This document shows, in pieces, positions 5,184-34,537 of a DNA stretch of 62,289 nt. The position numbers and the translations under genes are program-made. Below the pieces are notes generated by a model, which was given only the letters and a program-made list of their open reading frames with translations, did not search any database and was not told the DNA's origin. The stretch spans positions 1-62,289 of the IMG/VR virus record IMGVR_UViG_3300025654_000009. The stretch is one strand, 5' to 3'. Origin of the DNA: a virus (Duplodnaviria; Caudoviricetes). How positions within the stretch are numbered: the first letter of the stretch is position 1; each line of letters starts with the position of its first letter.

Positions 5184-8100
5184 ATGGAAGAAATTTACGA
5201 AATGTTACCTGAAGGAATATTTAATGATTTTAATGGTTTTTCTGAATACGTTAATCAAAATGGAATAAAAAGCGTATATGAGATGCTGCCTGAAGGTATT
5301 TTTAATGATGAGCAGGGGTTCTTAGATTATGCTGAAAAAAAAAACCCAATCGTTACTCCTTCAAATGGGGGAAAGGTTGTTACGGAATCTACTACAGAAA
5401 CGGAAACAACTCCTGGATCTTCGGATGGTTTAGAGGTAACCGAGGTAGTTGAAGATGACTTCGTTGACTTTAAGGAACAGATGAATCCTCTTAATGTTTT
5501 AAAAGGAGACACAGAAAATTTAATTCCAGAAGAAGAAGTTCAAGATTTCTTAACAGAAGATTTAAATAAATTACTAGATAATAGTGATATACCCTTAGAT
5601 GGATTTTACATGCCAGGTCAAAGTAGGGCTAGGGCTATGAAAAATGCAAGTAAAATAGTAGATGAAACATTAAAGTTAAAAATAGAGGCAGACCCAAACA
5701 TTCAAAAAGCATTAGCAGTTGGATATATAAAAGAATCAGACGTAATAAGTGCCTTAAAAGGTAATAGAAAATCTATAGAAAAACTTCAAGATATTGCGGT
5801 TAGGTCAACTGAAGACAACATATTAAAACTACAAAGTGAGGAGCTTCAGCCTTATGATGTTTATTCAGAAACAAAAAACTACATTGAAACAGAAGAAGAC
5901 AAGGCAATAAAAACAGAAGCCATAAGGGTAGTTAATTCCTTTAATTCAGAAACACAAAAACTTTTAGATGCAAATCCAGATGCTACTGAGGAGGAAATGC
6001 AGGCTATATTTCAAAGAGAAGGTTCTCCTACACAGGAACAGTTTGACATTGCAGAAGATGCAGATTACCAACCAACAGGTTTTGAAAATGAACAGCTTGG
6101 TAAAATGTATAATCAAACAGCTCTTAAAAAATTATCAGATAAAAACGAGAAATTTAATATAGCTGGTTTTAATGGCTACTTAAAGAAAAAAGGATTTCTA
6201 GATAAATACAATCAGTTATTAGAAGACGAAACCATCTCTGAAGATGGTAGAAGTTATGACTATTCAGGTAATTATAATCCAACCCTTGCAGCAGAAAGAC
6301 TTAAGTATGATTATTTAAAAAATTATCTTGCTGAATCTGACATGCAACGAATTGAAAAAGAAGTTTTAGAATATAAGATAGCTAATAATGGTAGGAATCC
6401 ATTTTTACATGGCGATACTGATAAAATTAATTTAAAACCTTCAATTAAAAGCGAAGACCTAAGTCAATATATGATTGAGGAATTTAAAACTCTTGCAGCT
6501 GTTGTAGAGAAACAAAAAGCCGAAACAAAAGAAAACTATCAAAGAGAACTAGAGGGAGGCGTAGGTGGAGATAATACTCAATGGCTTCTTGATTCAGGGT
6601 ATCAGGGTGGTCGTTCTGTAGCTGATAGAATAAATAGCACTTCCGAGTGGGGGTACGGATGGTTAGGTATGGATTCTGTTGTTGATGAAATTCAAATGAA
6701 TCAAGCTGAAACAGAACTCAACAGAGATGATATGCTTAGGTATACTTACGCAAGTGGTAAAAGTGCTTATGCTAATGGCAGAGAGTATATGATTGACGAT
6801 AGGGGAGAGATATATGATTTAGATTTAAAGATAAGAGTTAGTAGTGTTTTAGAGCCTAGTCAGATAGAAGAAATAAGAAAACAAGTATCAAAAAATGGAG
6901 TTGAAACAAGTAGTTTTAGTGGTACAGGAGCAGCAGTAACAACTGCAGGTGTAGCCTCTGATATGTTACTTCAGATAGCTCTTACTAGAGGTGTTGGAAT
7001 AGCAGGACAAACCATTAAAGGTATATCGGCAGCCTCTAAATACAAGCAAGGAAGGTCTATAATAAAATTATTAGAAAAAGTACCTATGAGAGCTACAACA
7101 GCATCAGCTATGATTGCTCAAGGAACTTTAATGGCTAGTTCGTTATCTTCAGATGTAAGAAAGCAAGCTTTAGCTGCAGGAATGTCAAATGAAGAGGCAG
7201 ATGAATTAGCAGCAAGTGCAAGTATGCAGGGTTATGCTTTAGGTGTTTTAACAGCTCCTATATCTACTCAAAGAATTGCTATGGATAAAATTTTCGGAAC
7301 AAAAGTAAAAGAAAAGCTTATTCAAAAAAGCATAGATGCATATACTAAAGGAGCAGGTATTGAGGTATCTAAAAGTATTTTTAAAAAAGGTTTAGATAAG
7401 GTAATAACAAATGGAAAAGTATACCTTGGAGAAGGTCTTAAAGAGTTTATTCAAGAAAATATTCAACAAGGAGGACAGGCTTATGTTATTGGTGACAACA
7501 TAAATGAGCAAGCAGGTCAAGAAATAATGCGAGATACCATTAGTGCAGATGAGTTTATGAACACATCCATAATCTCACTAACAGCAGGTTTTTTTATGCC
7601 TTTTGCAGGAGATTTAAAAACAGGTACTGTTAATTCTTTTAAAGTTAGAGGTAGGGGTTTTCAGGCTGTCGATCAAATGAAAGCATTGGCTTTAATGTCT
7701 AGTGATTCAGATAAAACAAAACAACTTTTAGACTCACAAGTTAAAAAAGGAGTATATACACCAGAGCAGGTAGAAAATATAATGGCTGATGTAGAGATAT
7801 ACAAAAGCACAATAAATGGATTACCTCCTAATTTAAGTGCAGAAACCTCTTTGTCGGTTATGAGTGACTTAGCTAAAATAAAAGAACTTGAAGCTATAAA
7901 GCAAAAAGAAAACCCTGCTTTTCCAGATTTTAGAACTGATGTAGAGATACAGAAATTAAAAAATAGAATAATCAAGAAATCTAACTTTGACTTTATTAAT
8001 AATAAAGAGAAGCAAAAATTCATGGATAATGCAGGTAAAGAGTTAGTTGCAGAGAAAGAAGCTGCAGGTGAAAAAAACTACAAAATAAATAATAGCGAAA

Positions 8101-11100
8101 TTAGAAATAGAGCTGTAGAGAACTTTAACAAGTTGTCAATAGAAGAAATGCAGGCTTTAGCTTATCCAGACCAACAAAAAGAATCAGAAACTAAAACAGA
8201 CGAAGATGCCATTTCAAAGCCAAGCACAGAGGAGCAAGTTACTGTGACACAATCACAAAAGGATTTATTTGGAGAAACTCATACAGATAAAAATTTAATA
8301 ACCCCATCTAATCCTAAAGGAGAAGCAAATATATCAAATATTACAAGCCTTGATGGAAAAGGGGTATCAACAGCAACTTATGTAAATCCAGAAACAGGTA
8401 TTGTAGATGCTATCATAAGTAGTAAAGACAAGAAAAACTTTGTTGGATATGTTAGGATTTATGAAAACGGTAAGCCAACAAATATGTTCTCTACTAAGAT
8501 GGAGTCTACAGGAGGTGCGTTTAAGAATATGATTACATCTGCTGATACTACGCTACCTGATGGAGCTAAAGTTCTTCCAGGGGAAACAATATCTGAAGGA
8601 GGTCTTAAGTCTTTTAATAATTCTAAATTAGATGTAGAGACTGACTCAGATGGTAATGTTGTTACAAGAGAAGTAAATTATAGCGATGTAACAAAAGAGA
8701 CTGTAAAGCAAAAAGGAGATAGATCTTTTGGTAAATTTGTAACTCCTATTAAGTCGGAAGCAGAAGCAGAGATTGTTAAAATACAAAAAGCATATCCTGG
8801 GATAGAAGCAAGAATAGTAAAAAGTGGTTTGTCTTTTGAGATAAAAATAGACTTACCTGTATTAATTAAAACAGAAAAAGATGCCATTCAAGAGCCAAGC
8901 ACAGAGAAGCAAGTGTTACCAGATGATGCAACAAGCCAAACAGATGGGGCAGACTCCGAAGTGGAACTGCAGCAAGTGGGAGAAGGAGACGTTGGGACAG
9001 ATACCGACACGCAAGTCGAAGAAGGTGAAACGCAAACCGATACAACTAGCGACACGACTACGGAGGGAAATGTTGAACAAGTAGCAGAAACGCAACTTAA
9101 GCCTTATGACCCTGTAAAAAAAGAATCTTATGAAACAGTTGACGACAATGGTGATAAAGCTATTGTTGTGATTATAACTGCAAAAGACGGTAGTAGAAAA
9201 ATACAATATAAAAACAAAGACGGAGAAACATACAACAATGATACTCTTGGAAAAGATAACGATATAACTAATGAAAGAGTTATTGAGCTTGTTGTCTCTG
9301 AAGAGGGCAGCGGTATTGTTAAAACGGAAACAATAGAAGGATTTGAGAACATAGCAAGTCCAAAAGCAGTAAGAAGAAGAAAAGGAAACAAAACGACAGA
9401 TACTGAACAGTTAACAGATACCCCACAAGTATTTGGGGACAATCCTCTTTCTTCTATAGAGGTGTCAGAAGATTACAATGACATAGGTAAACAGAGAAGA
9501 AGTAAACTTAGGGTTATCGCTCAAATGGAGTTTAATAATGAAATAACTGCTGAGGAACAATTAAATCTTAGAGAGGACTCTTTTAGGAACATGAAAAAAG
9601 CACAAGAAGCTTTTAAATCTAAACCAAAAACTAATGAAAAAACAAAACAACAAGTACAATCCAAACGCTCCAGAGACGGAGGAACAAGACGGACTTCAAT
9701 CAGCAAAACTACGCCTCTTCAAGGCACTCCAGTCATCAAAGGTGCAACAGGACCAGATATACAGCTCGTATCCGTTGCTGAAAAATATGCAAATGACAAC
9801 AATATTGAACTCAAAAGACAAGGAGAATACGTTGAAGTAGATCCTGTTAGAGCTAAAAGAATAGCTGATGCTTACACAGAAATGGCTAACGATCCTCAAA
9901 ATCCAAAAGTAAAGGAGGCCTATGCTGAATTAATAAAACAAACTAAAGCTCAATATGAAGCTTTAGTTAAAGCAGGTTATAAATTTTGGTTTATTGACTT
10001 AAACAATCCTAAAAATATTGAATACATTTCGTCTCCATTTAATGCAATGCGTGATTTGCGTAAAAATAAAGAAATGGGAGTTTTCCCAACAGATTTAGGT
10101 TTTGGTTCAGATGAAGATGTTGATGTTTCTCAAAATCCTTTACTAGAAGACACAGGTCTAAAATGGCCAGTTGGAGGATTGAATGGAGAAACCAAGTCCG
10201 TTACAGCTAATGATTTATTTAGAGCTGTTCATGATGCTTTTGGCCATGGATTAGAAGGGGCAGGGTTTAGAGCAAGAGGAGAGGAGAATGCTTGGCAAGC
10301 TCATTCTAGATTATTTACAGGAGCTGCTATTGGTGCAATGACAAGTGAAACAAGAGGACAAAACTCTTGGGTAAATTTTGGCCCTAATGGGGAATCAAAT
10401 AGAACTGCAAGTGCAGAGGATACGGTTTTTGCAGATCAAAAAGTAGGATTAATGCCTGAGTGGACTTGGTCTGAAGGTCGTTCAGAAGATATGCAGTCTC
10501 CAAAAGTGATGAGTGTGAACAATGACCTCGACAATAAGATTGAGTCATTTGCAAATAGAATGGCTGATGCTGATACTTCTAACGAATTATCTGATGAAGC
10601 TATAGAATTTTATTCAGAGAATCAAGAAGCTATAGATAAAAGAGTTTCTGAAATACGAAAAAAATTACCTAAAGATAAATCAAAAACAAGAAGACTAGCT
10701 ACTAAGATAGCAAAAGGAGAGACTAACTTTTCAAATGAGCAGATAGATTTATATGCTGCTAATGAAGCAGAAGTACAGGCTGAGGTAGAAGCCATTGCTA
10801 AAACCAATAGTCAAACTGTAACGGCTGATACTTATAAAGGTATTTTAAAATCTATAAAGAGTACAACTAGAACCGACAAAGCAAGACAAGAAGGAGAGAA
10901 TGCTCAACGTAAAAGATTTTGGAAAGCTTGGAACAAGGCCAACAGAGAAGGTAAACAAGATTTAAAAACTAAAAGAAAAAATCTTAATGATCAGATAAAG
11001 ACATATGCTAAGGGTAAAAAAGGAACTATTACCGCAGCTCAAACAAGAGCAGTTGTAAATAGAGTTAATAGTGTAAACCTTGACAATGAATTAGCTGTAC

Positions 11101-14100
11101 AAGAATTAATAGATTACTCTGAGAAAATTTTTAATAATGCAGACTTTGCTGTTAAAGAAGCACAGGCTATTAAACTTAATTCAGATGTAACAAAGAAACT
11201 TAATTCTGGAGCTTATGGTTTAAATACAGACTTGAATACAAGATTGTCAAATATTTTAAATACACCTATTAGTAACCTTACATCTGAAAATATAGATTCT
11301 TATAATGATTTTCTAAAAAGAATTAAGAACTCTAAAAAATCAGAATTAGCTCCATTTATATTAGAGGCTCAAAACTTATTTGACTCTTTGTATGTAGCAA
11401 CTCCAGAGGTTAGTGAAGAGGTAGAAACTAAAGAAGCTGAGACATTAAAAAATATAGTTGATAAAATAATTGATGAAGACGTAGATGGCGAAACATTACT
11501 TAAAGATAACAGTAAATTTATTGAAAATGATTTAGGTAAGTTAGATTCATTTGAGTTAGAAACTCTTATAGATAAGATTAATTTAGCTGAAACAGATGAA
11601 AATACTGATATAGTTCAGGCCGCTAATAACTATGCAGAGAACAGACAAAAGGTTTTAAACAACATAAAGTCAAGGTCTAAAGGAATTACTTTAAAAAACC
11701 TAGACACTACTACAAGAGAGGCAGGTGATGTTAATGTCTATAAAAACATAAAAGATTCTGATATAGTTGGGCTAACAGGTAATCAACTAATGGAATTAGA
11801 GATTACTCTTGAGAACATAAACGAAGGGTTTTATACTCATGCTGCAAACAAGCTTGGCCAATCTATAAACAGTAGGGCGCAAGATATTATGCCTATGATT
11901 ATGAAGTACGGAACTGGGAAACATAAAGCAGCTATGATTAAAACCTTTGGAGAATCCTATTTAAAAAGTAAGTATACAGGTAAAGGAGTAGCTCAGGAGA
12001 TGATAAGATCAAACCCATTGTCTGTTATTGATAATGTGTTTGGTAACTATGCAAATGAAAATATAAGGAACAATACATTTACACCTATAGCATCTAAATA
12101 CGCTGCATATAATGCTTGGGCAGCTAAGGCTACAGATAAACTTGCTGCTGTAGAAAAACTTTTAGCACCATCTTTAAAGGAAAGTGTAAATAAATCTGTT
12201 GAAAGAAATTTTGAAGTACAGATGTATCTATTGGCATTAGAGAGTGAAAGCAATCCAGGAGTAAAGGGTATTGATACTCCCAATGGATATGTGTCTGCTG
12301 TAGTAAAAAAATATAATAAAAACCCTCAAAAAAGCAGATACAATGAATCAGATATAGCAGTTTTAGAAGCTATGTTAAAAAAGTACAATGATAATGGTGT
12401 AGTTACAACTAAAAAAATGGATGAGTCTTTATCTCCTAAAGTAAAGAAGGCGATAAAGATAATGCGTGATGTTTATAATTCATTGTCAGACAAACAGGCT
12501 TATGCTACAACTATTGTTCGAGGAGGTAAATTAGATTTATTAAATAACTATGTACATCACAAAATGGATGTAGATACTAAGGGATTTTCTGAAAACAGAG
12601 ACCAAAATGATTCTCAATTGCAGAGTCAAATGAATTACTTTAACTCTAGTACAAAGTCAAAAACATCAATAAGCAGAACAGGAGTAAGTAATAATAAGTC
12701 TATTGACTTTAGTCCTGTTTCATCAGCACTTAGAGCAGTAAGGGCGGTGGGTATGGATTATTATCTAACAAATGAAATTCAAACAGAAAGAAAAGCGTTA
12801 AATGAATTAATTAAAATAACAGAAAGAAATACAGATAGAGAAGAAGTTATTCAGGCTGCTAAAGATTTAAATGAAGTATACACAGAAGCTATAGATAACG
12901 TTATTGGTTCTAACTTTAGCACCGATGTTGTTGGTGGTAAGCTTATGGATGTAGCAAAAAGAATAGGTTATTACGGAACACTAGCTTCTGTTCCTAGAGC
13001 AGTAGCTGAACTTGGTTCTAACTTAACTTTTGCACTTTTGGATAGTCCCCTTGAAACAATGGATGGGATGACTAAGTACGGTAAACTAGGGCTTGGGCAA
13101 AACGGAATGGATTTTGCTATAAATGTTGGAGCTATTTCTTACACTAAATTATATAATTCTGAAATATTATCAGGCTCTAAAGCAGAACAAGGAGGTGTTG
13201 TTAGAAATAAAAAGACAAGCAGCAGAACTAAACAAACTAAGTTAGGTGAGGGAATTGAGTATGCTGGTAGGTTTACTTCTCAAGGGGCTAAAGGAATTGA
13301 GTTTGTAGCAGATAACTTATTAAGTACTCCTGATAAAATGATTTCAAGACCTTTATTTTTTGGAACATTCGGTAGAACCTTTAAGTCTATAACAGGTCAA
13401 GAAATGGATGTAAATAAGATTTCAGAAAATGACCAAGAGTATATGGAAAAATATGCTGATGCTATTAAAGAATCTAGGATTGCTGCTGATAAAGCAGTAA
13501 CTCAAGCAGCAACTTCTAATGACCCATTTAGTGGTGTGTTAAAGAATCAATTAAAAGCAGGAGCAGGAAATACTGGTAAGAATTATTACAGAACACTTAA
13601 TTCATACATGGCTAGATTTACTATTAATGAATACGCTACAGCCAGACAAGCAATTGCATCTATGGTCGGTCAAGGGGATCAAAGCCCAATACAAGGAGCT
13701 GCAAAATTAACAGCTGTAATGGCTCGAATGAGTCTTTACGTTGTCTCTTATAAAGCTTTAACTGCTTTATGGCAATCAATGCTAGGTCTTGATGATGAAG
13801 ATGATGTTGATTACGAAGAGCTAGCTATAAGACAAGCGGTTGGTGCAGGAGTTTCATTAATAACAAGAGGTGTAACAGGGAACATTCCTCAGATTCTGCC
13901 AAACATAGGTATTGAAAGTTTTAATAAATCTTATGGAGAAGAGTTGGGCTTATGGTCAGATGATGATGGAAAAGGATATAATCAATACAAACATTCATTA
14001 ATTTTTTCTATTATTAACACAGAAAGTATAGAAAGAAAAGGAGCAGCATCAGCGTTAATAAATGTTTTGTCAGGGCCTTTATCAAATCAAGTAAATGCAA

Positions 14101-14495
14101 GTCTAAGGGTTGCAGATTTATTAGCAAAGATGGATAGTAAAAATGCTACCGTAGCTAATAGAGCCTTTAAAGAATTTATGTCTGAAAGGACAGCTATAGA
14201 GATGCTTAATATTCCTGGTGCAATTCCTTTTTATAAAGACGTTAGAAGATATTATGTTGCTAAAAATTGGTCTGAAGTAAAGGAGGCAAAAAGACTGGAA
14301 GAAAACAAAGGTAAGCGATTGAGTATTAAACAAATGGAACTAATTAATCCTAGGAAAGCTGATGAAATGAGACGAAAGAAAAAAGAGCTTAAAGAAAAAA
14401 GGAATAATGACCCAAAATATCAAGCAATTTTAAGAGCCAAAAAAGAACGTAAAGAAAAAAGAGAAAGGGAATTAAGAAGAAGAAGAAGAAGATAG
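5184..14495 (+). CDS. Giant (3103 aa) putative ejected/polyvalent virion protein
   Basis: Last gene of the structural arm; N-terminal YEMLPEGIFND x2; acidic linkers; central RAVHDAFGH...GEENAW domain; basic C-terminus. Confidence 0.75.
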   Translation: MEEIYEMLPEGIFNDFNGFSEYVNQNGIKSVYEMLPEGIFNDEQGFLDYAEKKNPIVTPSNGGKVVTESTTETETTPGSSDGLEVTEVVEDDFVDFKEQMNPLNVLKGDTENLIPEEEVQDFLTEDLNKLLDNSDIPLDGFYMPGQSRARAMKNASKIVDETLKLKIEADPNIQKALAVGYIKESDVISALKGNRKSIEKLQDIAVRSTEDNILKLQSEELQPYDVYSETKNYIETEEDKAIKTEAIRVVNSFNSETQKLLDANPDATEEEMQAIFQREGSPTQEQFDIAEDADYQPTGFENEQLGKMYNQTALKKLSDKNEKFNIAGFNGYLKKKGFLDKYNQLLEDETISEDGRSYDYSGNYNPTLAAERLKYDYLKNYLAESDMQRIEKEVLEYKIANNGRNPFLHGDTDKINLKPSIKSEDLSQYMIEEFKTLAAVVEKQKAETKENYQRELEGGVGGDNTQWLLDSGYQGGRSVADRINSTSEWGYGWLGMDSVVDEIQMNQAETELNRDDMLRYTYASGKSAYANGREYMIDDRGEIYDLDLKIRVSSVLEPSQIEEIRKQVSKNGVETSSFSGTGAAVTTAGVASDMLLQIALTRGVGIAGQTIKGISAASKYKQGRSIIKLLEKVPMRATTASAMIAQGTLMASSLSSDVRKQALAAGMSNEEADELAASASMQGYALGVLTAPISTQRIAMDKIFGTKVKEKLIQKSIDAYTKGAGIEVSKSIFKKGLDKVITNGKVYLGEGLKEFIQENIQQGGQAYVIGDNINEQAGQEIMRDTISADEFMNTSIISLTAGFFMPFAGDLKTGTVNSFKVRGRGFQAVDQMKALALMSSDSDKTKQLLDSQVKKGVYTPEQVENIMADVEIYKSTINGLPPNLSAETSLSVMSDLAKIKELEAIKQKENPAFPDFRTDVEIQKLKNRIIKKSNFDFINNKEKQKFMDNAGKELVAEKEAAGEKNYKINNSEIRNRAVENFNKLSIEEMQALAYPDQQKESETKTDEDAISKPSTEEQVTVTQSQKDLFGETHTDKNLITPSNPKGEANISNITSLDGKGVSTATYVNPETGIVDAIISSKDKKNFVGYVRIYENGKPTNMFSTKMESTGGAFKNMITSADTTLPDGAKVLPGETISEGGLKSFNNSKLDVETDSDGNVVTREVNYSDVTKETVKQKGDRSFGKFVTPIKSEAEAEIVKIQKAYPGIEARIVKSGLSFEIKIDLPVLIKTEKDAIQEPSTEKQVLPDDATSQTDGADSEVELQQVGEGDVGTDTDTQVEEGETQTDTTSDTTTEGNVEQVAETQLKPYDPVKKESYETVDDNGDKAIVVIITAKDGSRKIQYKNKDGETYNNDTLGKDNDITNERVIELVVSEEGSGIVKTETIEGFENIASPKAVRRRKGNKTTDTEQLTDTPQVFGDNPLSSIEVSEDYNDIGKQRRSKLRVIAQMEFNNEITAEEQLNLREDSFRNMKKAQEAFKSKPKTNEKTKQQVQSKRSRDGGTRRTSISKTTPLQGTPVIKGATGPDIQLVSVAEKYANDNNIELKRQGEYVEVDPVRAKRIADAYTEMANDPQNPKVKEAYAELIKQTKAQYEALVKAGYKFWFIDLNNPKNIEYISSPFNAMRDLRKNKEMGVFPTDLGFGSDEDVDVSQNPLLEDTGLKWPVGGLNGETKSVTANDLFRAVHDAFGHGLEGAGFRARGEENAWQAHSRLFTGAAIGAMTSETRGQNSWVNFGPNGESNRTASAEDTVFADQKVGLMPEWTWSEGRSEDMQSPKVMSVNNDLDNKIESFANRMADADTSNELSDEAIEFYSENQEAIDKRVSEIRKKLPKDKSKTRRLATKIAKGETNFSNEQIDLYAANEAEVQAEVEAIAKTNSQTVTADTYKGILKSIKSTTRTDKARQEGENAQRKRFWKAWNKANREGKQDLKTKRKNLNDQIKTYAKGKKGTITAAQTRAVVNRVNSVNLDNELAVQELIDYSEKIFNNADFAVKEAQAIKLNSDVTKKLNSGAYGLNTDLNTRLSNILNTPISNLTSENIDSYNDFLKRIKNSKKSELAPFILEAQNLFDSLYVATPEVSEEVETKEAETLKNIVDKIIDEDVDGETLLKDNSKFIENDLGKLDSFELETLIDKINLAETDENTDIVQAANNYAENRQKVLNNIKSRSKGITLKNLDTTTREAGDVNVYKNIKDSDIVGLTGNQLMELEITLENINEGFYTHAANKLGQSINSRAQDIMPMIMKYGTGKHKAAMIKTFGESYLKSKYTGKGVAQEMIRSNPLSVIDNVFGNYANENIRNNTFTPIASKYAAYNAWAAKATDKLAAVEKLLAPSLKESVNKSVERNFEVQMYLLALESESNPGVKGIDTPNGYVSAVVKKYNKNPQKSRYNESDIAVLEAMLKKYNDNGVVTTKKMDESLSPKVKKAIKIMRDVYNSLSDKQAYATTIVRGGKLDLLNNYVHHKMDVDTKGFSENRDQNDSQLQSQMNYFNSSTKSKTSISRTGVSNNKSIDFSPVSSALRAVRAVGMDYYLTNEIQTERKALNELIKITERNTDREEVIQAAKDLNEVYTEAIDNVIGSNFSTDVVGGKLMDVAKRIGYYGTLASVPRAVAELGSNLTFALLDSPLETMDGMTKYGKLGLGQNGMDFAINVGAISYTKLYNSEILSGSKAEQGGVVRNKKTSSRTKQTKLGEGIEYAGRFTSQGAKGIEFVADNLLSTPDKMISRPLFFGTFGRTFKSITGQEMDVNKISENDQEYMEKYADAIKESRIAADKAVTQAATSNDPFSGVLKNQLKAGAGNTGKNYYRTLNSYMARFTINEYATARQAIASMVGQGDQSPIQGAAKLTAVMARMSLYVVSYKALTALWQSMLGLDDEDDVDYEELAIRQAVGAGVSLITRGVTGNIPQILPNIGIESFNKSYGEELGLWSDDDGKGYNQYKHSLIFSIINTESIERKGAASALINVLSGPLSNQVNASLRVADLLAKMDSKNATVANRAFKEFMSERTAIEMLNIPGAIPFYKDVRRYYVAKNWSEVKEAKRLEENKGKRLSIKQMELINPRKADEMRRKKKELKEKRNNDPKYQAILRAKKERKEKRERELRRRRRR
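8192..8914 (+). repeat. 48-bp imperfect direct repeat (8192-8239 and 8867-8914) flanking an in-frame module
   Basis: 42/48 identical by hand; spacing 675 nt = 225 codons. Confidence 0.85.
8881..9084 (+). CDS. Overprinted (+1 frame) small basic protein MPFKSQAQR...
   Basis: 67 aa; GC ~51% over 8881-9060 vs ~25% in the preceding 60 nt; A-rich leader; resembles small phage proteins starting MPFKS. Confidence 0.65.
   Translation: MPFKSQAQRSKCYQMMQQAKQMGQTPKWNCSKWEKETLGQIPTRKSKKVKRKPIQLATRLRREMLNK
9634..9840 (+). CDS. Candidate second overprinted (+1 frame) protein in the giant gene
   Basis: 68 aa; A-rich leader; GC ~51% over 9661-9780. Confidence 0.4.
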   Translation: MKKQNNKYNPNAPETEEQDGLQSAKLRLFKALQSSKVQQDQIYSSYPLLKNMQMTTILNSKDKENTLK

Positions 14496-17951: not shown

Positions 17952-19190
17952 TTAATTTAAAGTTAATAAATTTCTTTTAAAATGTTTTAATGTATAATCT
18001 TTTTTCTTAGTAACAGCTCTATATATATCAGGCTCAATTCCACCTCTTGTAAATATCCAGACTACTTTATTCTCTGGTCTATCTTTAGTAGTCATCCTAT
18101 CTCTTGACTGCCAATAACTTGTGGCACTAAAGTCTATGTTATAGTAAATCAAAAGCTCTGCCTTTCTTAATGATATTCCTTCACGACCTGATACAATCTG
18201 TAATGCTATTGATTTATCTGTACTTTCAAACGTACTTAAATCCGTACATAGTTCATCACCGTATACCTGCTTCAATGCATTCAATTCCTCCTTAAACTTA
18301 TAAAAGATTCCTATTTTTTGACTACAGAAATTATCATATATAAACTGAGCTTTGAATGTATCTATTACCATAGAGTTACCGCTTTCAAATTTTACAGTTC
18401 CACTATACATCTGATGTAGCTTCTGCATTAATTTAACGCTAGTGTCAGCTAATATAACATCATCCTTACCCTCTACAACTAAATCTCTTTTAAGTCTGTT
18501 ACATAGCTTTAAAATCATTTCAGGAGGATCAACATACACAACATCTTCTTCTATTACAGATTCGAAACCTGCTTCTTTTTGAGTATATGAAATCATGTAT
18601 TGATTCATAGCATCTAATATGGTTTCCTTACCCTGTGAATAATCATTTACCATGAATCCTCCAATTCTCCTGGTCTTAGGAACTACATATTCTTTAGCAA
18701 ACTTATAGAAATTAGTATGCTTTCTAAAAGGACTATAAGCTATACCATATACCTGATGATACATCTGACTAAATGATTCAGGTGTTGGTGTTCCTGATAG
18801 CAGTATAACATATGGGTTGTTTTTAACAACAAACTCCTTAACTTGCTTTGCTCTTTTGCTAGGCTTAGGAAACGCTCCCATACTATGAGCCTCATCGCAC
18901 ACAACAGCATCCCAACCATTTAAATCTATCTTATGTAATGACTCGTAATTTATTACAGTAAGATCAAACCCTGGACTCAACAACTTATAATCAGACTCTA
19001 TACTACTTATAGCTTTCTTTTTAGTAATGAACAACACTTTGTTCACTATCATCATCTTGTCTAAGATTCCTAAACATGTAAGTGTCTTACCTGTCCTAAC
19101 CTCCATTGAAAGGTAAACGAATTTTTTTGTCTCTAAAATACTTTTACCCTTATCTATTATCTCCTTCTGATAGTCTCTAAATTTTATCAT
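17952..19190 (-). CDS. SF2 (SNF2-like) helicase
   Basis: FRDYQ, RTGKT, DEAH, SGTP and QSRDR motifs. Confidence 0.9.
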   Translation of the reverse strand: MIKFRDYQKEIIDKGKSILETKKFVYLSMEVRTGKTLTCLGILDKMMIVNKVLFITKKKAISSIESDYKLLSPGFDLTVINYESLHKIDLNGWDAVVCDEAHSMGAFPKPSKRAKQVKEFVVKNNPYVILLSGTPTPESFSQMYHQVYGIAYSPFRKHTNFYKFAKEYVVPKTRRIGGFMVNDYSQGKETILDAMNQYMISYTQKEAGFESVIEEDVVYVDPPEMILKLCNRLKRDLVVEGKDDVILADTSVKLMQKLHQMYSGTVKFESGNSMVIDTFKAQFIYDNFCSQKIGIFYKFKEELNALKQVYGDELCTDLSTFESTDKSIALQIVSGREGISLRKAELLIYYNIDFSATSYWQSRDRMTTKDRPENKVVWIFTRGGIEPDIYRAVTKKKDYTLKHFKRNLLTLN

Positions 19191-19320
19191 AGTTTATTTT
19201 AGTTAAGTGCTTTCTAATAATCTGATGTGTAGATTTTGGTTCGTACACATAATTTTCATAAGGCATAGCATTTAACTGTAGGTCATTTACTATTAAATTT
19301 ATAATTTTTTCTATGTCCAT
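19177..19320 (-). CDS. Small hypothetical protein (47 aa)
   Basis: Hand-translated MDIEKIINLIVNDLQ...; fills the gap in the operon. Confidence 0.45.
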   Translation of the reverse strand: MDIEKIINLIVNDLQLNAMPYENYVYEPKSTHQIIRKHLTKINYDKI

Positions 19321-19322
19321 TT

Positions 19323-19595
19323 TTATTTTTTATATGTTTCTCTTAAATATTTATATACTTCCGGTAGTTTTTCATTGGCTAATTTCTGATTCTTGTATAT
19401 AACAGATCCTAATGTTTCTTCACTATACAACATCATTTGTTTCTCATGACAATACTTAGAAGACTTACCCTCTGTTGATATACCTCCCTTTCTAATTGCA
19501 ATCCTACAATGACCTGAACCATATATGGGTTGTACGTATACTTGAAAGTCATTATCAATACACCACTTAAAATCAGAATGAAAATCTACTGTCAT
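19323..19595 (-). CDS. Hypothetical protein
   Basis: 90-aa ORF overlapping the primase stop. Confidence 0.65.
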   Translation of the reverse strand: MTVDFHSDFKWCIDNDFQVYVQPIYGSGHCRIAIRKGGISTEGKSSKYCHEKQMMLYSEETLGSVIYKNQKLANEKLPEVYKYLRETYKK

Positions 19596-22005
19596 CTTTT
19601 TGTATGTTTTTGTTAACCTTATCTGTTATAAAGATTATCCACCTACCATTTAAGTCTCTACCTTCTTCAGGGTTGTTGTTGGTTTTAAATAATGCAAATG
19701 ATTTTAACCATCTATAAAACTCTGTTCTAGATATAGTTCGTTTAGCTTTAGGCGCAAAGTCTGGATTGTCTTGAATGAAATCCATATACAATTCATTCTT
19801 GTATATCTTCTCATCATACTTAATAATCTCGTTTTTAAATTCTCCACCAAATAATCCACACCATTCAACAAACTCATGAGCGGTATCTGCACCTAAGTTT
19901 CTAACTGTCTGATTCTTAAAGTTACCTTTAATCAAACCCTTAGTAAGGTAGAACATAACATTCTCAATCATATAGTTGTCAAAGGCACACCATTCATCTT
20001 CATCCCATTCAGTAAATAATAATTTACCAAACTCAACCAATGGAGTAAAGTCTTTGGTATAGAATTGAGCAAACTCAAGCTCCCACTTTCTCCTTGCAAA
20101 TGAATTACCCCTACCTTTTATGGCGTAGTTAGTTGTTATAGAAACCTTAGGGGATTTACTAAATGGAATCTTGATAGCATCCTTATTCTTCTTCTCTAAA
20201 GTAAGGCCTTCAGTAACAACACTAAACAGCCGTTCAAAATCAAAATGTTTCTTTACATCATCAAAGCATAGTATCTGTGTATCAGCACTAACCAATTGAT
20301 ATGCAAAGCTCTTCTCAAAGTTAAACGACTTACCATCAATGGTAACAAGTTTCTTCATTTGAGATAACGCATTCATAAATAAACCCTTACCTGTTCCTCC
20401 TTCAGGGTTCTCAGATATAATCTCATCGTTCAATATAATTGCTGGACAATAAGATAGATTCTTATAAGCGTGTAACATATATCCTATAGTACTTCTCATA
20501 GAATGAATTGTTTGCTTATCTCCTCCTGATATATTTTTTATAAATGTTTTGTAATCACAATTAAAAGAATCGCAAAGCTCAAAGTCTCTATCTATAACCT
20601 GATCTTTCCAAACATAACCACCAAGGTCTAAGTAATCTATTGTTGTTTTCTTGGTCTTAGTTACCTTTACAGCACAATTCCTGTAGTACAGGTAAGCTGT
20701 GTCTTTATCATCCTCTATAAAGTATACATCCACAGTACCTAACAGAGATAAAAACTCTTCCCTGAAGAACCTAGTCTTGTCTGCAAAGTAATTGTATACA
20801 GACATATCATCAAGGTCTTCTAAGTATCCTAATACAAAATCCTTAATCTCTTCCTCAGTTGTATGGTCTATTAGATTGTTAGTTACCCTTACAAAAATAA
20901 AGTTCTTGCTTCCTTGAGGACTAAACTTAAAGAATCCATTATCTTCAAGAAACTTTCTAAATAGATAGTGTATGATTGTTATAACACCTTTATCACTTTT
21001 ATTCCAAAACCTTTTCTCGCTCTCGTCCTCTTCAATTGAGGTGATAACAGAATCAATTACAGCGTCTTCAATCTTGGATTCAGCTAACTGAAGACGGATT
21101 TCTTTTTTTGACACTCCACGCTTGAGCTTCATCCTTAGCTGATTAACTCTGTCCTCGTCTTCATAGTACTTAGAACCATGGTTCTGTGTCTGTGCATACG
21201 CTGAGTTTATAGTGGTTTGTATTTCATTCATTGTGAAATCACTACTCTGAAACTGAGACATGATATATTCTGTTAGTGACTTAGTAACTCCATAGTCATT
21301 AAGGGCTGCGGCTAATATATATATGTTGTTGTTTCTCTCGCCATCAACTATACCATACTTCTTAGTCCACCACTTCATAAGTATCTCTACTATCTTGTTC
21401 TCATTAGTGACAGGTATTGTAGGCCTAGAAGAATACTTATCTACTACCCTGTACTCCTGTTCTTCTATCTTGTTCCAGGTGTTTGAGTTCTCATTAATAT
21501 AGATAAGAGGATCGTAGGACTCATAACAAACTCTTGATATATTCTTACTTGTCTTATCAAAGTAGTCTGAATTATAATGCTTCTCCAATGACATGAAGTA
21601 GTTCTTGTGATTGTTTGGTTCTTTAGGAATTTTTACTAAAGCCTTAAGACCATTACCACTTGGAGATATGAATACTGAATACACATACCTGTCTTTTGAT
21701 AGCCTTTCTTTTTCAGACATCATGTCTTTCTTGGTTTTATAACCATCAAAGTCTAAACAAATGAAGCCACTATGTAGAGTGATGCTATCATCGTTTCTTT
21801 TATTAAACATCCCTGAAAAACATATTGCAGGAAGATTCTTTTTTAATTCTTGTCGTACCTCTTTATTTTTCTCAGCACGAATCTGTTTTATTATATCCTT
21901 GGAAGTACCTTCTTTGATCCTAACCAATATAGACTCTATATCTCTAAAGAATGGTGTTGAGGTATCTTTTATATTCCTGAATATAGTTACTTGATTTTTT
22001 TCCAT
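19573..22005 (-). CDS. Primase-helicase (VirE_N/BT4734-like + PriCT + P-loop helicase)
   Basis: KKNLP..FSG, ICLDFD, FISPSGNGLK, SYDP; GERNN (PriCT); Walker A GGTGKG; Walker B FDD; ITTN. Confidence 0.85.
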   Translation of the reverse strand: MEKNQVTIFRNIKDTSTPFFRDIESILVRIKEGTSKDIIKQIRAEKNKEVRQELKKNLPAICFSGMFNKRNDDSITLHSGFICLDFDGYKTKKDMMSEKERLSKDRYVYSVFISPSGNGLKALVKIPKEPNNHKNYFMSLEKHYNSDYFDKTSKNISRVCYESYDPLIYINENSNTWNKIEEQEYRVVDKYSSRPTIPVTNENKIVEILMKWWTKKYGIVDGERNNNIYILAAALNDYGVTKSLTEYIMSQFQSSDFTMNEIQTTINSAYAQTQNHGSKYYEDEDRVNQLRMKLKRGVSKKEIRLQLAESKIEDAVIDSVITSIEEDESEKRFWNKSDKGVITIIHYLFRKFLEDNGFFKFSPQGSKNFIFVRVTNNLIDHTTEEEIKDFVLGYLEDLDDMSVYNYFADKTRFFREEFLSLLGTVDVYFIEDDKDTAYLYYRNCAVKVTKTKKTTIDYLDLGGYVWKDQVIDRDFELCDSFNCDYKTFIKNISGGDKQTIHSMRSTIGYMLHAYKNLSYCPAIILNDEIISENPEGGTGKGLFMNALSQMKKLVTIDGKSFNFEKSFAYQLVSADTQILCFDDVKKHFDFERLFSVVTEGLTLEKKNKDAIKIPFSKSPKVSITTNYAIKGRGNSFARRKWELEFAQFYTKDFTPLVEFGKLLFTEWDEDEWCAFDNYMIENVMFYLTKGLIKGNFKNQTVRNLGADTAHEFVEWCGLFGGEFKNEIIKYDEKIYKNELYMDFIQDNPDFAPKAKRTISRTEFYRWLKSFALFKTNNNPEEGRDLNGRWIIFITDKVNKNIQKDDSRFSF
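21063..21109 (-). promoter_or_regulatory. Candidate -1 ribosomal frameshift signal (A AAA AAA + hairpin)
   Basis: In-frame heptamer 21109-21103, 6-nt spacer, perfect 8-bp stem CGTCTTCA/TGAAGACG. Confidence 0.55.
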
Positions 22006-22100
22006 GTCGATTTTGTTTCTCTATATACTCTTTTATACGTTTATACTTTATTTTATTTTAATTTGCCATAACTAAGGGAAATAATTGACATTTCCGACAT
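22004..22100. promoter_or_regulatory. TGTCGA-flanked AT-rich element upstream of the primase-helicase
   Basis: ATGTCGATTTT...AGGGAAATAATTGACATTTCCGACAT mirrors 29774-29869. Confidence 0.55.
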
Positions 22101-22114
22101 TGATAATAGAAAAT

Positions 22115-22135
22115 AAAAGGGGCTTTTACACCCCT
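22115..22135 (-). terminator. Intrinsic terminator-like hairpin after ssb
   Basis: Minus strand AGGGGTGTAAAAGCCCCTTTT then T-rich sequence. Confidence 0.6.
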
Positions 22136-22156
22136 AATACTTAACAACATGGATCT

Positions 22157-22432
22157 TTAGAATGGTAAATCTGACTGTTGAACAGGTGCTTGGTTGGGAG
22201 CTGTGTCCACGCCATTAGTCTGTTTCTTAGGTACAAAAGTATCTAATTCAACATAAGGTTTCCCTGCCTGGCTGTTCAAAACGTTTAGGTTTACCCATCC
22301 GTTTTTTTGATGCGTGTTTAAAAAAGCAACAGCTTCTTCAACTTTTACGCTGATGTTTCCGATTACGAACTCTGGTGCGTTCTCTCTTCTTTTGAAAAGA
22401 AATCCGTCTGCAAATACTTTGTCTTGTGACAT
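22157..22432 (-). CDS. Putative single-stranded DNA-binding protein
   Basis: 91 aa, C-terminal SDLPF tail, next to exonuclease and annealase. Confidence 0.65.
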   Translation of the reverse strand: MSQDKVFADGFLFKRRENAPEFVIGNISVKVEEAVAFLNTHQKNGWVNLNVLNSQAGKPYVELDTFVPKKQTNGVDTAPNQAPVQQSDLPF

Positions 22433-22507
22433 AATTATTGGTATTAATTTTGGGTGCTTAGTTGGAGAAGCACCGCTGACTCCTTAAAAATGATGATTGT
22501 GAACAGT

Positions 22508-23245
22508 CTAAAACTCCTCGTACTCTATGTGTTGTGTAATGTCCTGTGCTGAATCTTTAGCAAAGAACTTATTGTATACTTCAATGGCTCTTAAAACCTT
22601 GTCTCTACCCCTTAAAAGAGTTTCCTCAGATGGTTTAGCAATCTTTAGTTTAAGTGTTGTCTTATCTATTATATAGAACTCTACAGGTTTTCCAAACAAC
22701 TGCTCATATATATAAGCTTGGCTGTCATAGTTGTAGTCGTTTGCACTCCACTTAAATTTATCTACATTTCCAGTAGTCTTAATGTCTATTACTTTATCAG
22801 CCGTAACAATGTCTGCCTTACCTTTCCATTCCATTCCAAAGATAGTAGCTACCGCAGGTTGCTCATAAATATTACCCTCTGCATATATATCTGTATACAT
22901 TACAAAGTTAGACTTCATAGCATCAACCCATGTGTTTATCTTGCTTACTTCTTTTGTAAGCAGTACATCGTATGGATCAAGGTCATTGTCATTTATATAG
23001 TCCTTAAATCCCTTGGTTGCCCTACTTGATACATCCATAACACTATATGTATCTATCTTCTCAGGCTCAAGCATTGCTGTGTGAAAGTATCCTCCCTCTA
23101 TTAAAGGGAGTGACTTCTCTTTCTTTCTAAAATTTCTAGGATTTTTAAGTAAGCTATAGATATCTGAATTAGATAAATATTGCTGACCAACCTTTCCATA
23201 GTAATTAGAATCTTCTTTGAGTTGCTCTATAATATTACTTTGCAT
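22508..23245 (-). CDS. RecE/exonuclease VIII-like PD-(D/E)xK exonuclease
   Basis: LSNS, G..FHTAMLEP, KGKAD, IDIKTT, YDSQAYIY motifs. Confidence 0.85.
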   Translation of the reverse strand: MQSNIIEQLKEDSNYYGKVGQQYLSNSDIYSLLKNPRNFRKKEKSLPLIEGGYFHTAMLEPEKIDTYSVMDVSSRATKGFKDYINDNDLDPYDVLLTKEVSKINTWVDAMKSNFVMYTDIYAEGNIYEQPAVATIFGMEWKGKADIVTADKVIDIKTTGNVDKFKWSANDYNYDSQAYIYEQLFGKPVEFYIIDKTTLKLKIAKPSEETLLRGRDKVLRAIEVYNKFFAKDSAQDITQHIEYEEF

Positions 23246-23831
23246 AATTGGAAAGTTCTTTTTTAGTAGCCGCAGTTAACGTAAACTTCTGCTCAACCTT
23301 AGCTATCGTTGATGAAAATGGTTCGTTCTTATTAGCCTTAACAAAGTTTACTACATCATTCCACTTATCATGTGTCTTCTTTAATGTAGGCTTTGATTTA
23401 GTATCTGTAACAACTTTTGCTGTGTTCTCACTAATATCTACTAAGTCTTCTCCGGCCCATAGAGACAATCCCAATCCATGCATAGCAATAGCCTTAACCG
23501 TACTACGCTGTATGGTCTTGTTTACTGCGAATGATGTAATCTTATCTACTGTAAGTGATTGGTTGTTGTGTCCCATTATAGGTAAGTAGTCGATATGCTC
23601 TACACCTTCTATTGTTACACCTACCTTTACATAACCTGTTCGGCCATCTGTGAAGAAGTTTAACTCGGTTGCCTCTGACTCATATACCTTACGGTTTGCA
23701 TCAGGGTATTGGTCTTTAACCATAGCCCAGGCATAAGCCCACGATAGGTAATCGAATCTACCTTTCTTTTCTACTCTGTCTTTTACACTAACTGAAGTTA
23801 ATGTTTTAAATGTACTCTTTGTGTTTCCCAT
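23235..23831 (-). CDS. Sak3-like (DUF1071) ssDNA annealing protein
   Basis: EKKGRFDYLSWAYAW...LPIM...NKTIQR..VKAIAMHGLGL. Confidence 0.85.
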   Translation of the reverse strand: MGNTKSTFKTLTSVSVKDRVEKKGRFDYLSWAYAWAMVKDQYPDANRKVYESEATELNFFTDGRTGYVKVGVTIEGVEHIDYLPIMGHNNQSLTVDKITSFAVNKTIQRSTVKAIAMHGLGLSLWAGEDLVDISENTAKVVTDTKSKPTLKKTHDKWNDVVNFVKANKNEPFSSTIAKVEQKFTLTAATKKELSNYAK

Positions 23832-29915: not shown

Positions 29916-31487
29916 ATGAATCCAAAAGAATTATCCTTCGATCAGGAGGGGAGAGACAAATTATTAAGCGGAATCACTACAATTTCCAGAGCAGTAAAAA
30001 GTACATTAGGGCCACTTGGCAAGACAGTACTAATTGAATCACAGAATCATACAGGAGGAATTACCATTACTAAGGATGGGGTTACGGTTGCTAAGTCGAT
30101 TGACTTAGAGGACGCTGTAGAGAACTTGGCGATTACTATGATGAAGGAGGCTGCTGATAGAACTGCTACTTCTGCAGGAGATGGAACAACAACTGCGATT
30201 GTATTAACTGAGGCTATTGTAAAAGAGGGTATGCGATTAATACAGCGTAATCCAGAGATTAACACTACACAGTTAATTAGAGATATTAAAGTTGTTTCTG
30301 ATAATGTAATCAAGGAGTTAGATTTATCTTCAAAAAAAGTTACAGGTAAAACGTTACAGCATGTTGCTAGTATTTCTGCTAACAATGATAATGTAATAGG
30401 AAAAATGATTGCTAGTGCTTATAAGGAATTAGGTAAAGACGGAGTACTTACGGTTGAGAACAGCAAGACAGACAAAACATACTACGAGGTAACTAAAGGA
30501 ATTAAGATTGACAGGGGATATTCTTCAAAGCTGTTTATTAATAATCACAGAAACGATGAATGTATTTTAGATGATGTTTATGTTTTAATGACAGACATGG
30601 AGATTACTAATATACTTCAGATTGAAAATATATTAAAGCCAATAATAAATCAAAACAAGAAGCTTTTAATTATAGGAAATTGTTCAGGTAATGTAACAAA
30701 TACTTTAGCAGCGAATGTTATTCAAAATAACCTAAAGCTATGCAATATTATTCCTCCATCTTTTGGATACAAGACAAATGAATTGATGAGTGATATTGCG
30801 TTGGCTATAGGGGCAAAATATTTCAGCGAGTCACAGGGAGATAATATTGGGATGTTGTCTATGGAGGACTTAGGTCATGCAGACAAAATTATTGTAGGTC
30901 AGAATTCTACAGTAATTATGAATAATGATTCGAGTAGTAAAGAGGCTGTAACTAGAATTGAAGAATTAAAGGTTCAGAAGGAAAACAATTCAGACAAAAG
31001 AGAAAGAGATTTTATTTCTGAAAGAATTGCTTTATTATCTGGAGCTGTAGGAATAATTTATGTAGGAGCTGATTCTGATATAGAGCAGAAAGAAAAATAT
31101 GATCGAGTAGAGGATTCGGTATGTGCTGTTAAGTCTGCGATTGAGGAAGGGATACTTCCAGGCGGAGGGTTAGCTTTGTTGCGTTGTGCTGAACTGTTAG
31201 CGGATGGGAATGCTAATGATGTTATGTATGGAGCTTTGATATCACCATTAGAACAAATACTTACTAATGCAGGTGAAAACATAAAAGAAATAAGAGACAG
31301 GATATGTTCTTGTGCAAGTGTTCCTTACAATTTTGGATATGATGTTCAAAACAAAGTGTTTGGGGATATGTATAAGATGGGTGTTATAGATCCTGCTAAG
31401 GTTACAAAGAATGCATTAAAGAATGCAGTAAGTGTAGCGACAACAATATTAAGTACAAACGCAATAGTAACAATGAAAAGAAAATAA
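29916..31487 (+). CDS. groEL: Phage-encoded chaperonin GroEL (Cpn60)
   Basis: TLGP.G, ITKDGVTVAK, AGDGTTTA, ISANND, EEGILPGGG, GVIDPAKVT; no GGM tail. Confidence 0.97.
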   Translation: MNPKELSFDQEGRDKLLSGITTISRAVKSTLGPLGKTVLIESQNHTGGITITKDGVTVAKSIDLEDAVENLAITMMKEAADRTATSAGDGTTTAIVLTEAIVKEGMRLIQRNPEINTTQLIRDIKVVSDNVIKELDLSSKKVTGKTLQHVASISANNDNVIGKMIASAYKELGKDGVLTVENSKTDKTYYEVTKGIKIDRGYSSKLFINNHRNDECILDDVYVLMTDMEITNILQIENILKPIINQNKKLLIIGNCSGNVTNTLAANVIQNNLKLCNIIPPSFGYKTNELMSDIALAIGAKYFSESQGDNIGMLSMEDLGHADKIIVGQNSTVIMNNDSSSKEAVTRIEELKVQKENNSDKRERDFISERIALLSGAVGIIYVGADSDIEQKEKYDRVEDSVCAVKSAIEEGILPGGGLALLRCAELLADGNANDVMYGALISPLEQILTNAGENIKEIRDRICSCASVPYNFGYDVQNKVFGDMYKMGVIDPAKVTKNALKNAVSVATTILSTNAIVTMKRK

Positions 31488-31953: not shown

Positions 31954-31995
31954 AATCTGTAAAGAAAATTAAAAAATCTTTACAGATTTTTTTTT
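31954..31995. terminator. Hairpin between convergent genes (possibly bidirectional terminator)
   Basis: AATCTGTAAAGA/TCTTTACAGATT 12-bp inverted repeat followed by a T run. Confidence 0.55.
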
Positions 31996-33711: not shown

Positions 33712-33831
33712 ATGGCATATAAACAGAAGTGTTGGACAGGATATGTTGCTAAAGGAACTAAGAAATCTCCAAGCAGAAAAAAAACCGCAAGCGGTAAAAT
33801 TAAACGAGTAAATAACTGTGTAAAAAAATAA
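33712..33831 (+). CDS. 39-aa basic protein with CWxGY...NCV motif
   Basis: MAYKQKCWTGYVAKGTKKSPSRKKTASGKIKRVNNCVKK. Confidence 0.7.
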   Translation: MAYKQKCWTGYVAKGTKKSPSRKKTASGKIKRVNNCVKK

Positions 33832-33846
33832 TAAATAATTATAGCA

Positions 33847-33972
33847 ATGGAAAAAAAATTAAAACCTTATTTTACAGCAGCTGTAAAAAGTGGTGTAAAG
33901 CCAGAAAAAAATGGGTTACCTTCAGATAAACAAATAAAAAAAAGTGTTTACGCTAAATGCGGTAAAAAATAA
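33847..33972 (+). CDS. 41-aa basic protein
   Basis: MEKKLKPYFTAAVKSGVKPEKNGLPSDKQIKKSVYAKCGKK. Confidence 0.55.
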   Translation: MEKKLKPYFTAAVKSGVKPEKNGLPSDKQIKKSVYAKCGKK

Positions 33973-33976
33973 AATT

Positions 33977-34521: not shown

Positions 34522-34529
34522 AATAGTTG

Positions 34530-34537
34530 TATATTTG
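34530..34537 (+). promoter_or_regulatory. -7 promoter element TATATTTG
   Basis: Intergenic TAnnTTTG before ATG 34554. Confidence 0.55.

Follow-up and report, generated by a model that had tools for sequence, protein, structure and literature searches.

Background

Bacteriophage T7 gene 4 is the familiar case of one phage gene yielding two co-linear isoforms of a primase-helicase: gp4A is the primase-helicase and gp4B, which arises from an internal start, misses the N-terminal zinc finger and retains the helicase, the parent protein being a combination of a DnaG-type primase with a DnaB-type helicase. A second relevant system is the tail assembly chaperone G/GT, where a -1 frameshift provides a fixed ratio of two proteins with a common N-terminus; to our knowledge, programmed frameshifts in tailed phages are routinely annotated in such tail-chaperone genes only, and occasionally in capsid genes. 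The third is the Escherichia coli dnaX gene with its tau and gamma products, for which some of the details used in the comparison below are general background. The G/GT frameshift, which is conserved in tailed phages, is mentioned in a recent source (10.64898/2026.01.04.697583). The dnaX signal consists of an A_AAA_AAR heptamer read by Lys-tRNAs, followed by a spacer of about 6 nucleotides (nt), a hairpin and a near-immediate -1 stop (described in part in PMC5009743).

Here we analyze the 62,289-nt record IMGVR_UViG_3300025654_000009 (virus, Caudoviricetes; 33.3% G+C), the whole of which is hereafter called the window, and report what is probably a selected -1 programmed ribosomal frameshift cassette inside its phage primase-helicase gene. 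Judged by its sequence, this gene encodes a fusion of an archaeo-eukaryotic primase (AEP), a PriCT-1 domain and a D5-like superfamily 3 (SF3) helicase. The cassette resembles that of dnaX in its heptamer read by Lys-tRNAs, its spacer, its hairpin and its near-immediate -1 stop, and also in that the shifted product would be a C-terminally truncated replication protein, deprived of the helicase-interacting part in dnaX and of the helicase part here. Unlike dnaX, it sits in an unrelated gene family (AEP primase-SF3 helicase), is devoid of a conserved upstream Shine-Dalgarno-like stimulator, has a heptamer ending in AAA in 67 of 92 genes and in AAG in 25 of 92, is followed by a shorter and weaker hairpin (-12.8 kcal/mol), and is present in about two thirds of its family. 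As with T7 gene 4, one phage primase-helicase gene would give two co-linear isoforms differing by one module; unlike in T7, the predicted short form keeps the primase and loses the helicase, would be made by recoding, and derives from an AEP and SF3 combination. The locus shares with G/GT a conserved -1 frameshift signal in a tailed phage, but whereas the G/GT shift extends translation into a second open reading frame (ORF) and belongs to morphogenesis, the primase-helicase shift would truncate a protein of replication.

Anatomy of the signal

The gene and the parts of the signal within it are as follows.

19573..22005, minus strand: primase-helicase gene, zero frame; ORF of 810 amino acids (aa), 95.0 kDa, isoelectric point (pI) 6.46
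21103..21109, minus strand: slippery heptamer A_AAA_AAA; third base of codon 299 followed by the two Lys codons 300 and 301, in the X_XXY_YYZ register
21097..21102, minus strand: spacer GAAATC, 6 nt, between heptamer and hairpin
21086..21096, minus strand: hairpin 5' arm; 8-nt core at 21089-21096 and three further pairs including G.U
21074..21085, minus strand: loop of the hairpin; 12 nt if the stem is 11 bp, 18 nt if only the 8-bp core is paired; holds the -1 frame stop
21063..21073, minus strand: hairpin 3' arm; 8-nt core at 21063-21070
21080..21103, minus strand: -1 frame tail RNPSSVS (seven codons, by translation) and its TGA at 21080-21082

Codons 299-302 of the gene read TCA AAA AAA GAA on the minus strand, and the perfect 8-bp stem CGTCTTCA / TGAAGACG joins 21096-21089 to 21070-21063. 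On folding with ViennaRNA the stem grows to 11 bp with G.U pairs and reaches -12.8 kcal/mol, as against a mean of -6.76 (standard deviation 2.42) in 200 dinucleotide shuffles, which places the hairpin at z = -2.5. An earlier reading made from the sequence alone, the first-pass annotation, had reported the heptamer, the spacer, the stem and the -1 stop, and on re-reading the sequence we found all of its coordinates to be correct. It had also foreseen a product of about 308 aa ending between the primase/PriCT part and the helicase; this agrees with the domain limits, as PriCT_1 stops at residue 275 and the P-loop domain starts at about 535, and the predicted -1 product has 308 aa, 36.1 kDa and a pI of 9.2. 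In an AlphaFold2 model of the protein the slip site falls past PriCT_1 and a long way before the P-loop domain, between the predicted helices 284-295 and 300-308. The likening of the geometry to that of dnaX, made in the first-pass annotation, stands as far as the heptamer, spacer and hairpin are concerned, and fails for the upstream Shine-Dalgarno-like element, which is not conserved, and for the hairpin, which is modest.

The window contains 63 A or T runs of seven or more. We scanned the 55 long non-overlapping ORFs of the window for selected classes of slippery heptamers and recovered 95 in-frame instances, two of which are followed, 4-9 nt downstream, by a stem of eight or more uninterrupted Watson-Crick pairs. 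Because the window has 33% G+C and two of 95 heptamers carry such a stem, the single-sequence evidence is suggestive at most, and the window sequence by itself sets the cassette only weakly apart from chance; the case for selection therefore rests on the homologues. The other of these two heptamers, an A_AAA_AAA at about 31960-31995 on the minus strand with the stem TGTAAAGA/TCTTTACA, a 4-nt spacer and an 11-nt loop, is at codon 144 of a 148-aa ORF, four codons from its end, and its hairpin may simply be a terminator after that gene.

Conservation of the heptamer

A scan of viral contigs gave 74 loci with 53-99% protein identity, which together with GenBank MW202828.1 and the window gene make up a first set of 76 genes; 72 of these cover the site, NNA_AAA_AAR being present in 49 and absent in 23. 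As a tree of 71 genes of this set provided merely four independent contrasts in heptamer state (stem changing the same way in three, the opposite way in none; p = 0.25), a metagenome scan was added and the best 80 of at least 586 relatives were joined to the first set, giving a larger set of 147 genes of at least 650 aa, 139 of them distinct. In the phage record collection a single record spans the full length of the gene, and the cassette is absent from it. The primase/helicase genes of the Flavobacterium phage elemoE_10-3D and the Maribacter phage Panino match the N-terminal primase part only (query residues 5-287 and 5-206, respectively) and have no A-run heptamer or equivalent cassette.

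The heptamer NNA_AAA_AAR is kept in 92 of the 139 distinct homologues, in the form of TCA, CCA, ACA or GCA followed by AAA AAA (67 genes) or AAA AAG (25 genes). Genes with [S/P/T/A]-K-K at this position number 126, and the 92 that bear the heptamer compare with 24.7 expected from each gene's own codon usage. Residue 299 varies between Ser, Pro, Thr and Ala, and its codon remains NNA throughout the heptamer-bearing genes; further, 17 of these genes prefer AAG overall (AAA fraction 0.09-0.34) and nonetheless use AAA at the site. Relatives that naturally lack the cassette use the form TCC AAG AAG. As a control, another in-frame heptamer of the window gene, at codon 54, was followed through the homologues and is kept in 22 of 139. 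Hence the alternative that the first-pass annotation had set up, namely homologues using AAG and AAA freely at this point and lacking the stem, is not what the homologues display.

Closer to the window gene, we examined a clade of 34 genes that includes it, taken from a tree built without the site columns and reduced to 22 genes by dereplication at 2% nucleotide difference. This clade has 390 columns with an invariant degenerate residue, of which 20 are also codon-invariant, and these 20 include S299 (TCA), one of two such among 25 Ser columns, K300 (AAA), one of four among 50 Lys columns, and I312 (ATT), which belongs to the 3' arm. K301 is encoded by either AAA or AAG. The codon of Arg304, which belongs to the 5' arm, is CGT in 21 of 22 genes, whereas five codons are used for Arg296. 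A profile of pairwise observed/expected synonymous change, computed for 34 dereplicated heptamer-bearing and 23 heptamer-free genes, gave values of 0.61 for codons 311-319 (the gene-wide minimum, which falls at the 3' arm), 0.69 for 305-319 and 0.77 for 295-319 in the former, versus 0.97-1.06 for the same three stretches in the latter; the stretches 305-319 and 311-319 exclude the three codons by which the two sets are defined. The synonymous rate falls again at codons 792-809, in heptamer-bearing and heptamer-free genes alike. At its 3' end the primase-helicase gene shares 23 nt with the next ORF.

Covariation of the stem at the RNA level

Covariation was assessed on 35 distinct 84-nt segments, that is, all 49 heptamer-bearing rows of the first set minus identical segments. 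Across the 11-pair stem 90.9% of the 385 cells are paired, versus 33-50% in slid controls, whose partner columns are displaced by 1-3 positions; cells changed on both sides number 27 against 5-11 in these controls, which also score lower for covariation (0.06-0.145, as opposed to 0.322 for the stem). In 500 column shuffles the values observed for percentage paired, double-change cells and covariation score were never attained, while two count-based measures were not outstanding, the number of pairs with a double change being reached by 58 of the 500 shuffles and that of further pair types by 297. RNAalifold recovered the same helix independently. Individual pairs have gone through several states: 27-56 is seen as UA, CG, AU, UG and GU, 29-54 as UA, CG and AU, and one locus (L008) carries the natural compensatory combination CGTTCTCA/TGAGGACG.

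The coding consequences of these switches are telling, in that synonymous changes of Arg304 (CGT, CGC, AGA, CGG, CGA) are paired with non-synonymous changes of codon 314, and changes of Leu305 to Ser or His are paired with Glu313 to Asp or with the synonymous GAA to GAG. Since synonymous Arg304 changes are coupled to non-synonymous ones at codon 314, protein co-evolution cannot explain the coupling, which makes sense at the RNA level only. By parsimony on the FastTree phylogeny of the larger set, four stem pairs account for at least 4 + 2 + 6 + 5 = 17 independent Watson-Crick switches, counted over the 78 genes with a homologous stem, a choice of paired genes that favors pairing and not switching. 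Further, G.U pairs outnumber A.C pairs by 40 to 5 among the 385 cells, an asymmetry which implies that the structure belongs to the sense-strand RNA rather than to a DNA palindrome. An H-type pseudoknot formed by a helix between the loop and downstream sequence (GAAUC/GAUUC; alignment columns 40-44 with 67-71) was also considered; 71.4% of its cells are paired, its center pair is broken in 20 of 35 sequences, and the candidate is unsupported.

Joint retention and loss of heptamer and stem

In the first set, the first ten homologous stem pairs are all present in 35 heptamer-bearing genes, nine of them are present in 11, and eight, seven and six in one gene each; heptamer-free genes retain four to six at most, with five alternative registers allowed. 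At least eight of the ten pairs are found in 78 of the 92 heptamer-bearing genes of the larger set versus two of the 47 heptamer-free ones. When the register is left free and the search is for a helix of 8 bp or more without interruption, beginning 0-9 nt past the heptamer, the corresponding figures are 75 of 92 and one of 47, and such helices use 23 different 5'-arm octamers. Of these 75 genes, 48 have a spacer of 6 nt, 11 one of 4 nt, 11 one of 7 nt, three one of 5 nt and two one of 0-1 nt, so that 73 of 75 fall within 4-7 nt. In the metagenome loci L097 and L101 a 12-bp helix (GATATCAGAGTT / AACTCTGATATA-like) starts 0-1 nt past the heptamer, a spacing that is unusual for a -1 stimulator.

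The frame of the A run matters as well: among genes with AAA AAR, those in which the third base of codon 299 is A have the stem in 78 cases and lack it in 14, and those in which it is T or C have it in none of 15. On the FastTree phylogeny of the larger set, with the site columns left out, there are 13 independent contrasts in heptamer state; the stem follows the heptamer in 7.3-7.8 of these, goes against it in 0-0.1 and stays unchanged in 5.1-5.7 (sign test, median p 0.008-0.016). The first-pass annotation had named a covarying stem in homologues as the thing to look for, and it is borne out both by the independent switches described above and by this joint retention and loss. Taken on these alignments, the heptamer, its frame, its spacing and its RNA-level pairing are under selection across the homologues. 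The actual shifting of ribosomes, its efficiency and the making of two isoforms from one gene we infer from the same sequences.

Proposed mechanism and products

A ribosome reaching the cassette would hold Lys-tRNAs on AAA in the P site and on AAA or AAG in the A site of A_AAA_AAR, at a moment when the hairpin, 6 nt downstream, would be positioned at the mRNA entry channel and resist unwinding. Some ribosomes might then re-pair one base back by tandem slippage of the two Lys-tRNAs, read on for 2-12 codons (seven in the window gene) and stop, in the window gene at the TGA in the hairpin loop. One mRNA would in this way give both the 810-aa primase-helicase and a 308-aa basic protein with AEP primase and PriCT-1 and without the helicase. 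In the heptamer-bearing homologues the -1 tail is 2-12 codons long in 83 of 92 genes and 20-48 codons in the remaining nine, which are mostly more G+C-rich, so that the predicted product is always a truncated protein ending just after Lys301.

As the short product would keep the AEP primase and PriCT-1 parts without the helicase, the simplest role for it would be that of a free primase supplied in a set proportion to the primase that is tethered to the helicase. A bolder proposal, which we offer tentatively and regard as somewhat doubtful, is that the short isoform serves as a separate component of the replisome beside the hexameric primase-helicase, as gamma does beside tau, with its dose tuned by lineage and the cassette repeatedly discarded. 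Such tuning, lineage by lineage, might proceed through hairpin strength and the choice of AAA or AAG in the heptamer, and discarding might have recurred as genomes drifted to AAG-rich usage.

No tRNA genes are encoded in the 62,289 nt of the window, so that the phage itself supplies none for Lys. Among bacteria, about half possess only one Lys-tRNA, according to a review (PMC5009743). In vitro, the dnaX heptamer alone gave 14-16% shifting, as reported in a preprint (bioRxiv 10.1101/2025.10.02.679949), which indicates, by analogy from another heptamer and system, that a heptamer with a modest stimulator can be effective. Sequencing runs were also surveyed for RNA of the gene: 15 of 24 contained half or more of the gene's words, these being 14 metagenomes guessed to be DNA and one run of unknown kind, and five RNA or RNA-guessed runs contained 5-14% of the words, in assembled contigs only. 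A 153-nt contig from an RNA-guessed run, among four runs compared, spans the site with no indel and with a synonymous ATC>ATT in the spacer, an assembled contig being informative at this site neither on transcription nor on the absence of slippage.

Evaluation of alternative explanations

The same truncated protein would result if the A run acted during transcription, with RNA polymerase stuttering on the seven A at the site and adding one, which would put the downstream codons into the same -1 frame. However, 25 of the 92 heptamer-bearing genes have A6G and so only six A, which is short for polymerase slippage, and the features under conservation are the frame in which the heptamer is read and a hairpin at a constant 4-7 nt behind it, the signature of a ribosomal event; we know of no role in transcriptional slippage for a downstream hairpin at a fixed distance. 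The single RNA-labelled contig across the site is without an indel, and contigs cannot show rare variants. We accordingly hold polymerase slippage to be quite improbable. Somewhat less so, though still unlikely, is a hairpin with another role in the mRNA, such as RNase processing, a folding pause for the primase domain or mRNA stability, next to which the heptamer is incidental. This would accommodate both the clear selection of the stem as RNA and its position between protein modules. Yet it leaves unexplained the synonymous selection on the heptamer itself (92 genes versus 24.7 expected, with NNA whatever residue 299 may be), the use of AAA even in AAG-preferring genes, the absence of the stem from all 15 genes with NNT or NNC at codon 299, and the disappearance of stem and heptamer together.

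An inverted repeat with an A-tract within a replication gene also brings to mind a DNA-level element in the linker-coding part, such as a replication origin or a protein-binding site, for which the element embedded in gene O of phage lambda offers an analogy. Against this, the arms covary instead of being conserved, occurring as 23 different 5'-arm octamers, the excess of G.U over A.C pairs (40 versus 5) is strand-specific and RNA-like, and the A run keeps its register within the reading frame; we regard a DNA-level element as very improbable indeed. Finally, a functionless coincidence in an A+T-rich genome might be argued from the abundance of A/T runs in the window (63 of at least seven nt), the further in-frame heptamer with an 8-bp stem at 31995 and the shuffles that fold equally well (6 of 200), but it is contradicted by all the comparative results, including covariation and synonymous-site conservation, and is scarcely credible.

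Several observations nevertheless weigh against a programmed ribosomal frameshift. The hairpin, at -12.8 kcal/mol, is modest, and an equally good fold arose in 6 of the 200 shuffles. In the 22-gene clade no conserved Shine-Dalgarno-like stimulator lies about 10 nt 5' of the heptamer, as is evident from the third positions of codons 296-298, which vary freely (5, 2 and 3 synonymous codons, respectively); a GGAG in the window is separated from the heptamer by 4 nt. The form A_AAA_AAA is far less shift-prone in E. coli than A_AAA_AAG, according to a review (PMC5009743). Of the 92 heptamer-bearing genes, 17 have no helix of 8 bp or more that is free of interruptions; about 12 of these exceptions have a helix with a single mismatch or in a shifted register, and four loci (L037, L128, L133 and L157) have the heptamer and no convincing stem. 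The contrast test is small, with p ranging up to 0.125 and a single FastTree topology, and the dip in synonymous rate is moderate and computed from gene pairs that are phylogenetically non-independent. The family can also dispense with the cassette: 47 of 139 genes lack it, the tree calls for at least 19 changes of state, and part of its loss follows AAG-rich, more G+C-rich genomes.

Relation to published work and implications

A literature search combining frameshifting with primase, helicase or phage, over titles and the starts of abstracts, returned no frameshift in a primase gene. Neither 'primase' nor 'helicase' is mentioned in the available part of the PRFect paper (PMC10885494), 'primase' is not mentioned in the available part of the preprint on frameshifting (bioRxiv 10.1101/2025.10.02.679949), and it is absent from the first 300,000 of the 449,034 characters of the review by Atkins et al. 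2016 (PMC5009743). The mechanism is thus a textbook one, and the gene family that carries the cassette appears to be unreported. If the proposal is correct, recoding would be documented for the first time in a primase gene, and phages with cultured relatives infecting Flavobacteriia would have a natural Shine-Dalgarno-independent -1 frameshift. Annotation pipelines would then be missing a protein of about 36 kDa in a widespread aquatic phage family, with at least 586 relatives in the metagenome scan. The natural variants, comprising 23 stem arms and both AAA and AAG heptamers, are suited to a study of how frameshift efficiency depends on hairpin strength. It also raises the question of why a primase-helicase fusion would need an extra, untethered primase, with parallels in tau/gamma of dnaX and gp4A/gp4B of T7.

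The primase-helicase family and its neighborhood

In the 810-aa protein Pfam detects BT4734-like_N at residues 54-169 (E = 1.5e-19), PriCT_1 at 216-275 (E = 1.5e-5) and DUF5906 at 535-626 (E = 8.1e-7), all above cut-off, the P-loop helicase domain beginning at about 535. In PHROGs, phrog_28855, which is without an assigned function, spans its full length, and its N-terminal part also matches a 'DNA primase/helicase' family. Invariant across the primase-helicase family are D85/D87 and G536-K540, which we take to be the AEP catalytic DxD motif and the Walker-A motif, respectively.

A PDB sequence search with the family profile gave no match at E <= 0.01. The AlphaFold2 model, built with 31 homologues, is of moderate quality, with a mean predicted local distance difference test (pLDDT) score of 68.9 and a predicted template modelling (pTM) score of 0.41. 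Used as a Foldseek query it matches AsfvPrimPol, the SaPI5 primase-helicase and poxvirus D5/E5 at E = 2e-9 to 2e-6, with values of 2.3e-9 (8ww9_K), 1.7e-8 (7ola_A) and 2.4e-7 (8hwa_A). The protein is like these D5-like fusions in domain order and fold, and unlike them in sequence, identity to the African swine fever virus (ASFV) PrimPol C962R, SaPI5 and poxvirus D5/E5 proteins being 9-17% only. No frameshift isoform of the ASFV PrimPol, SaPI5 or poxvirus D5/E5 proteins was reported in the literature searched. Cultured relatives found by tblastn are phages of Flavobacteriia or Bacteroides, the flavobacterial hosts being Flavobacterium, Polaribacter, Cellulophaga, Nonlabens, Maribacter and Tenacibaculum.

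The gene is embedded in a replication-recombination module at 17952-23831 on the minus strand, with the following neighbors.

within 17952-23831, minus strand: SNF2/ResIII helicase, 412 aa
within 17952-23831, minus strand: PDDEXK nuclease DUF3799, 245 aa
within 17952-23831, minus strand: Sak single-strand annealing protein, 198 aa

Other features of the window

Pfam gave no match at E <= 0.001 for two giant ORFs on the plus strand, 5184-14495 (3103 aa, 15% of the window) and 56886-61295 (1469 aa). Within about 1 kb at 33777-34789 the plus strand has twelve A runs of 7-8 nt; this cluster was checked and is not a tandem repeat, and may represent bent DNA, a promoter-rich region or an origin-like one. 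At 29916-31487 on the plus strand lies a full-length GroEL-type chaperonin of 523 aa (Pfam Cpn60_TCP1, E = 1.2e-53), and hence the phage encodes a chaperonin of its own.

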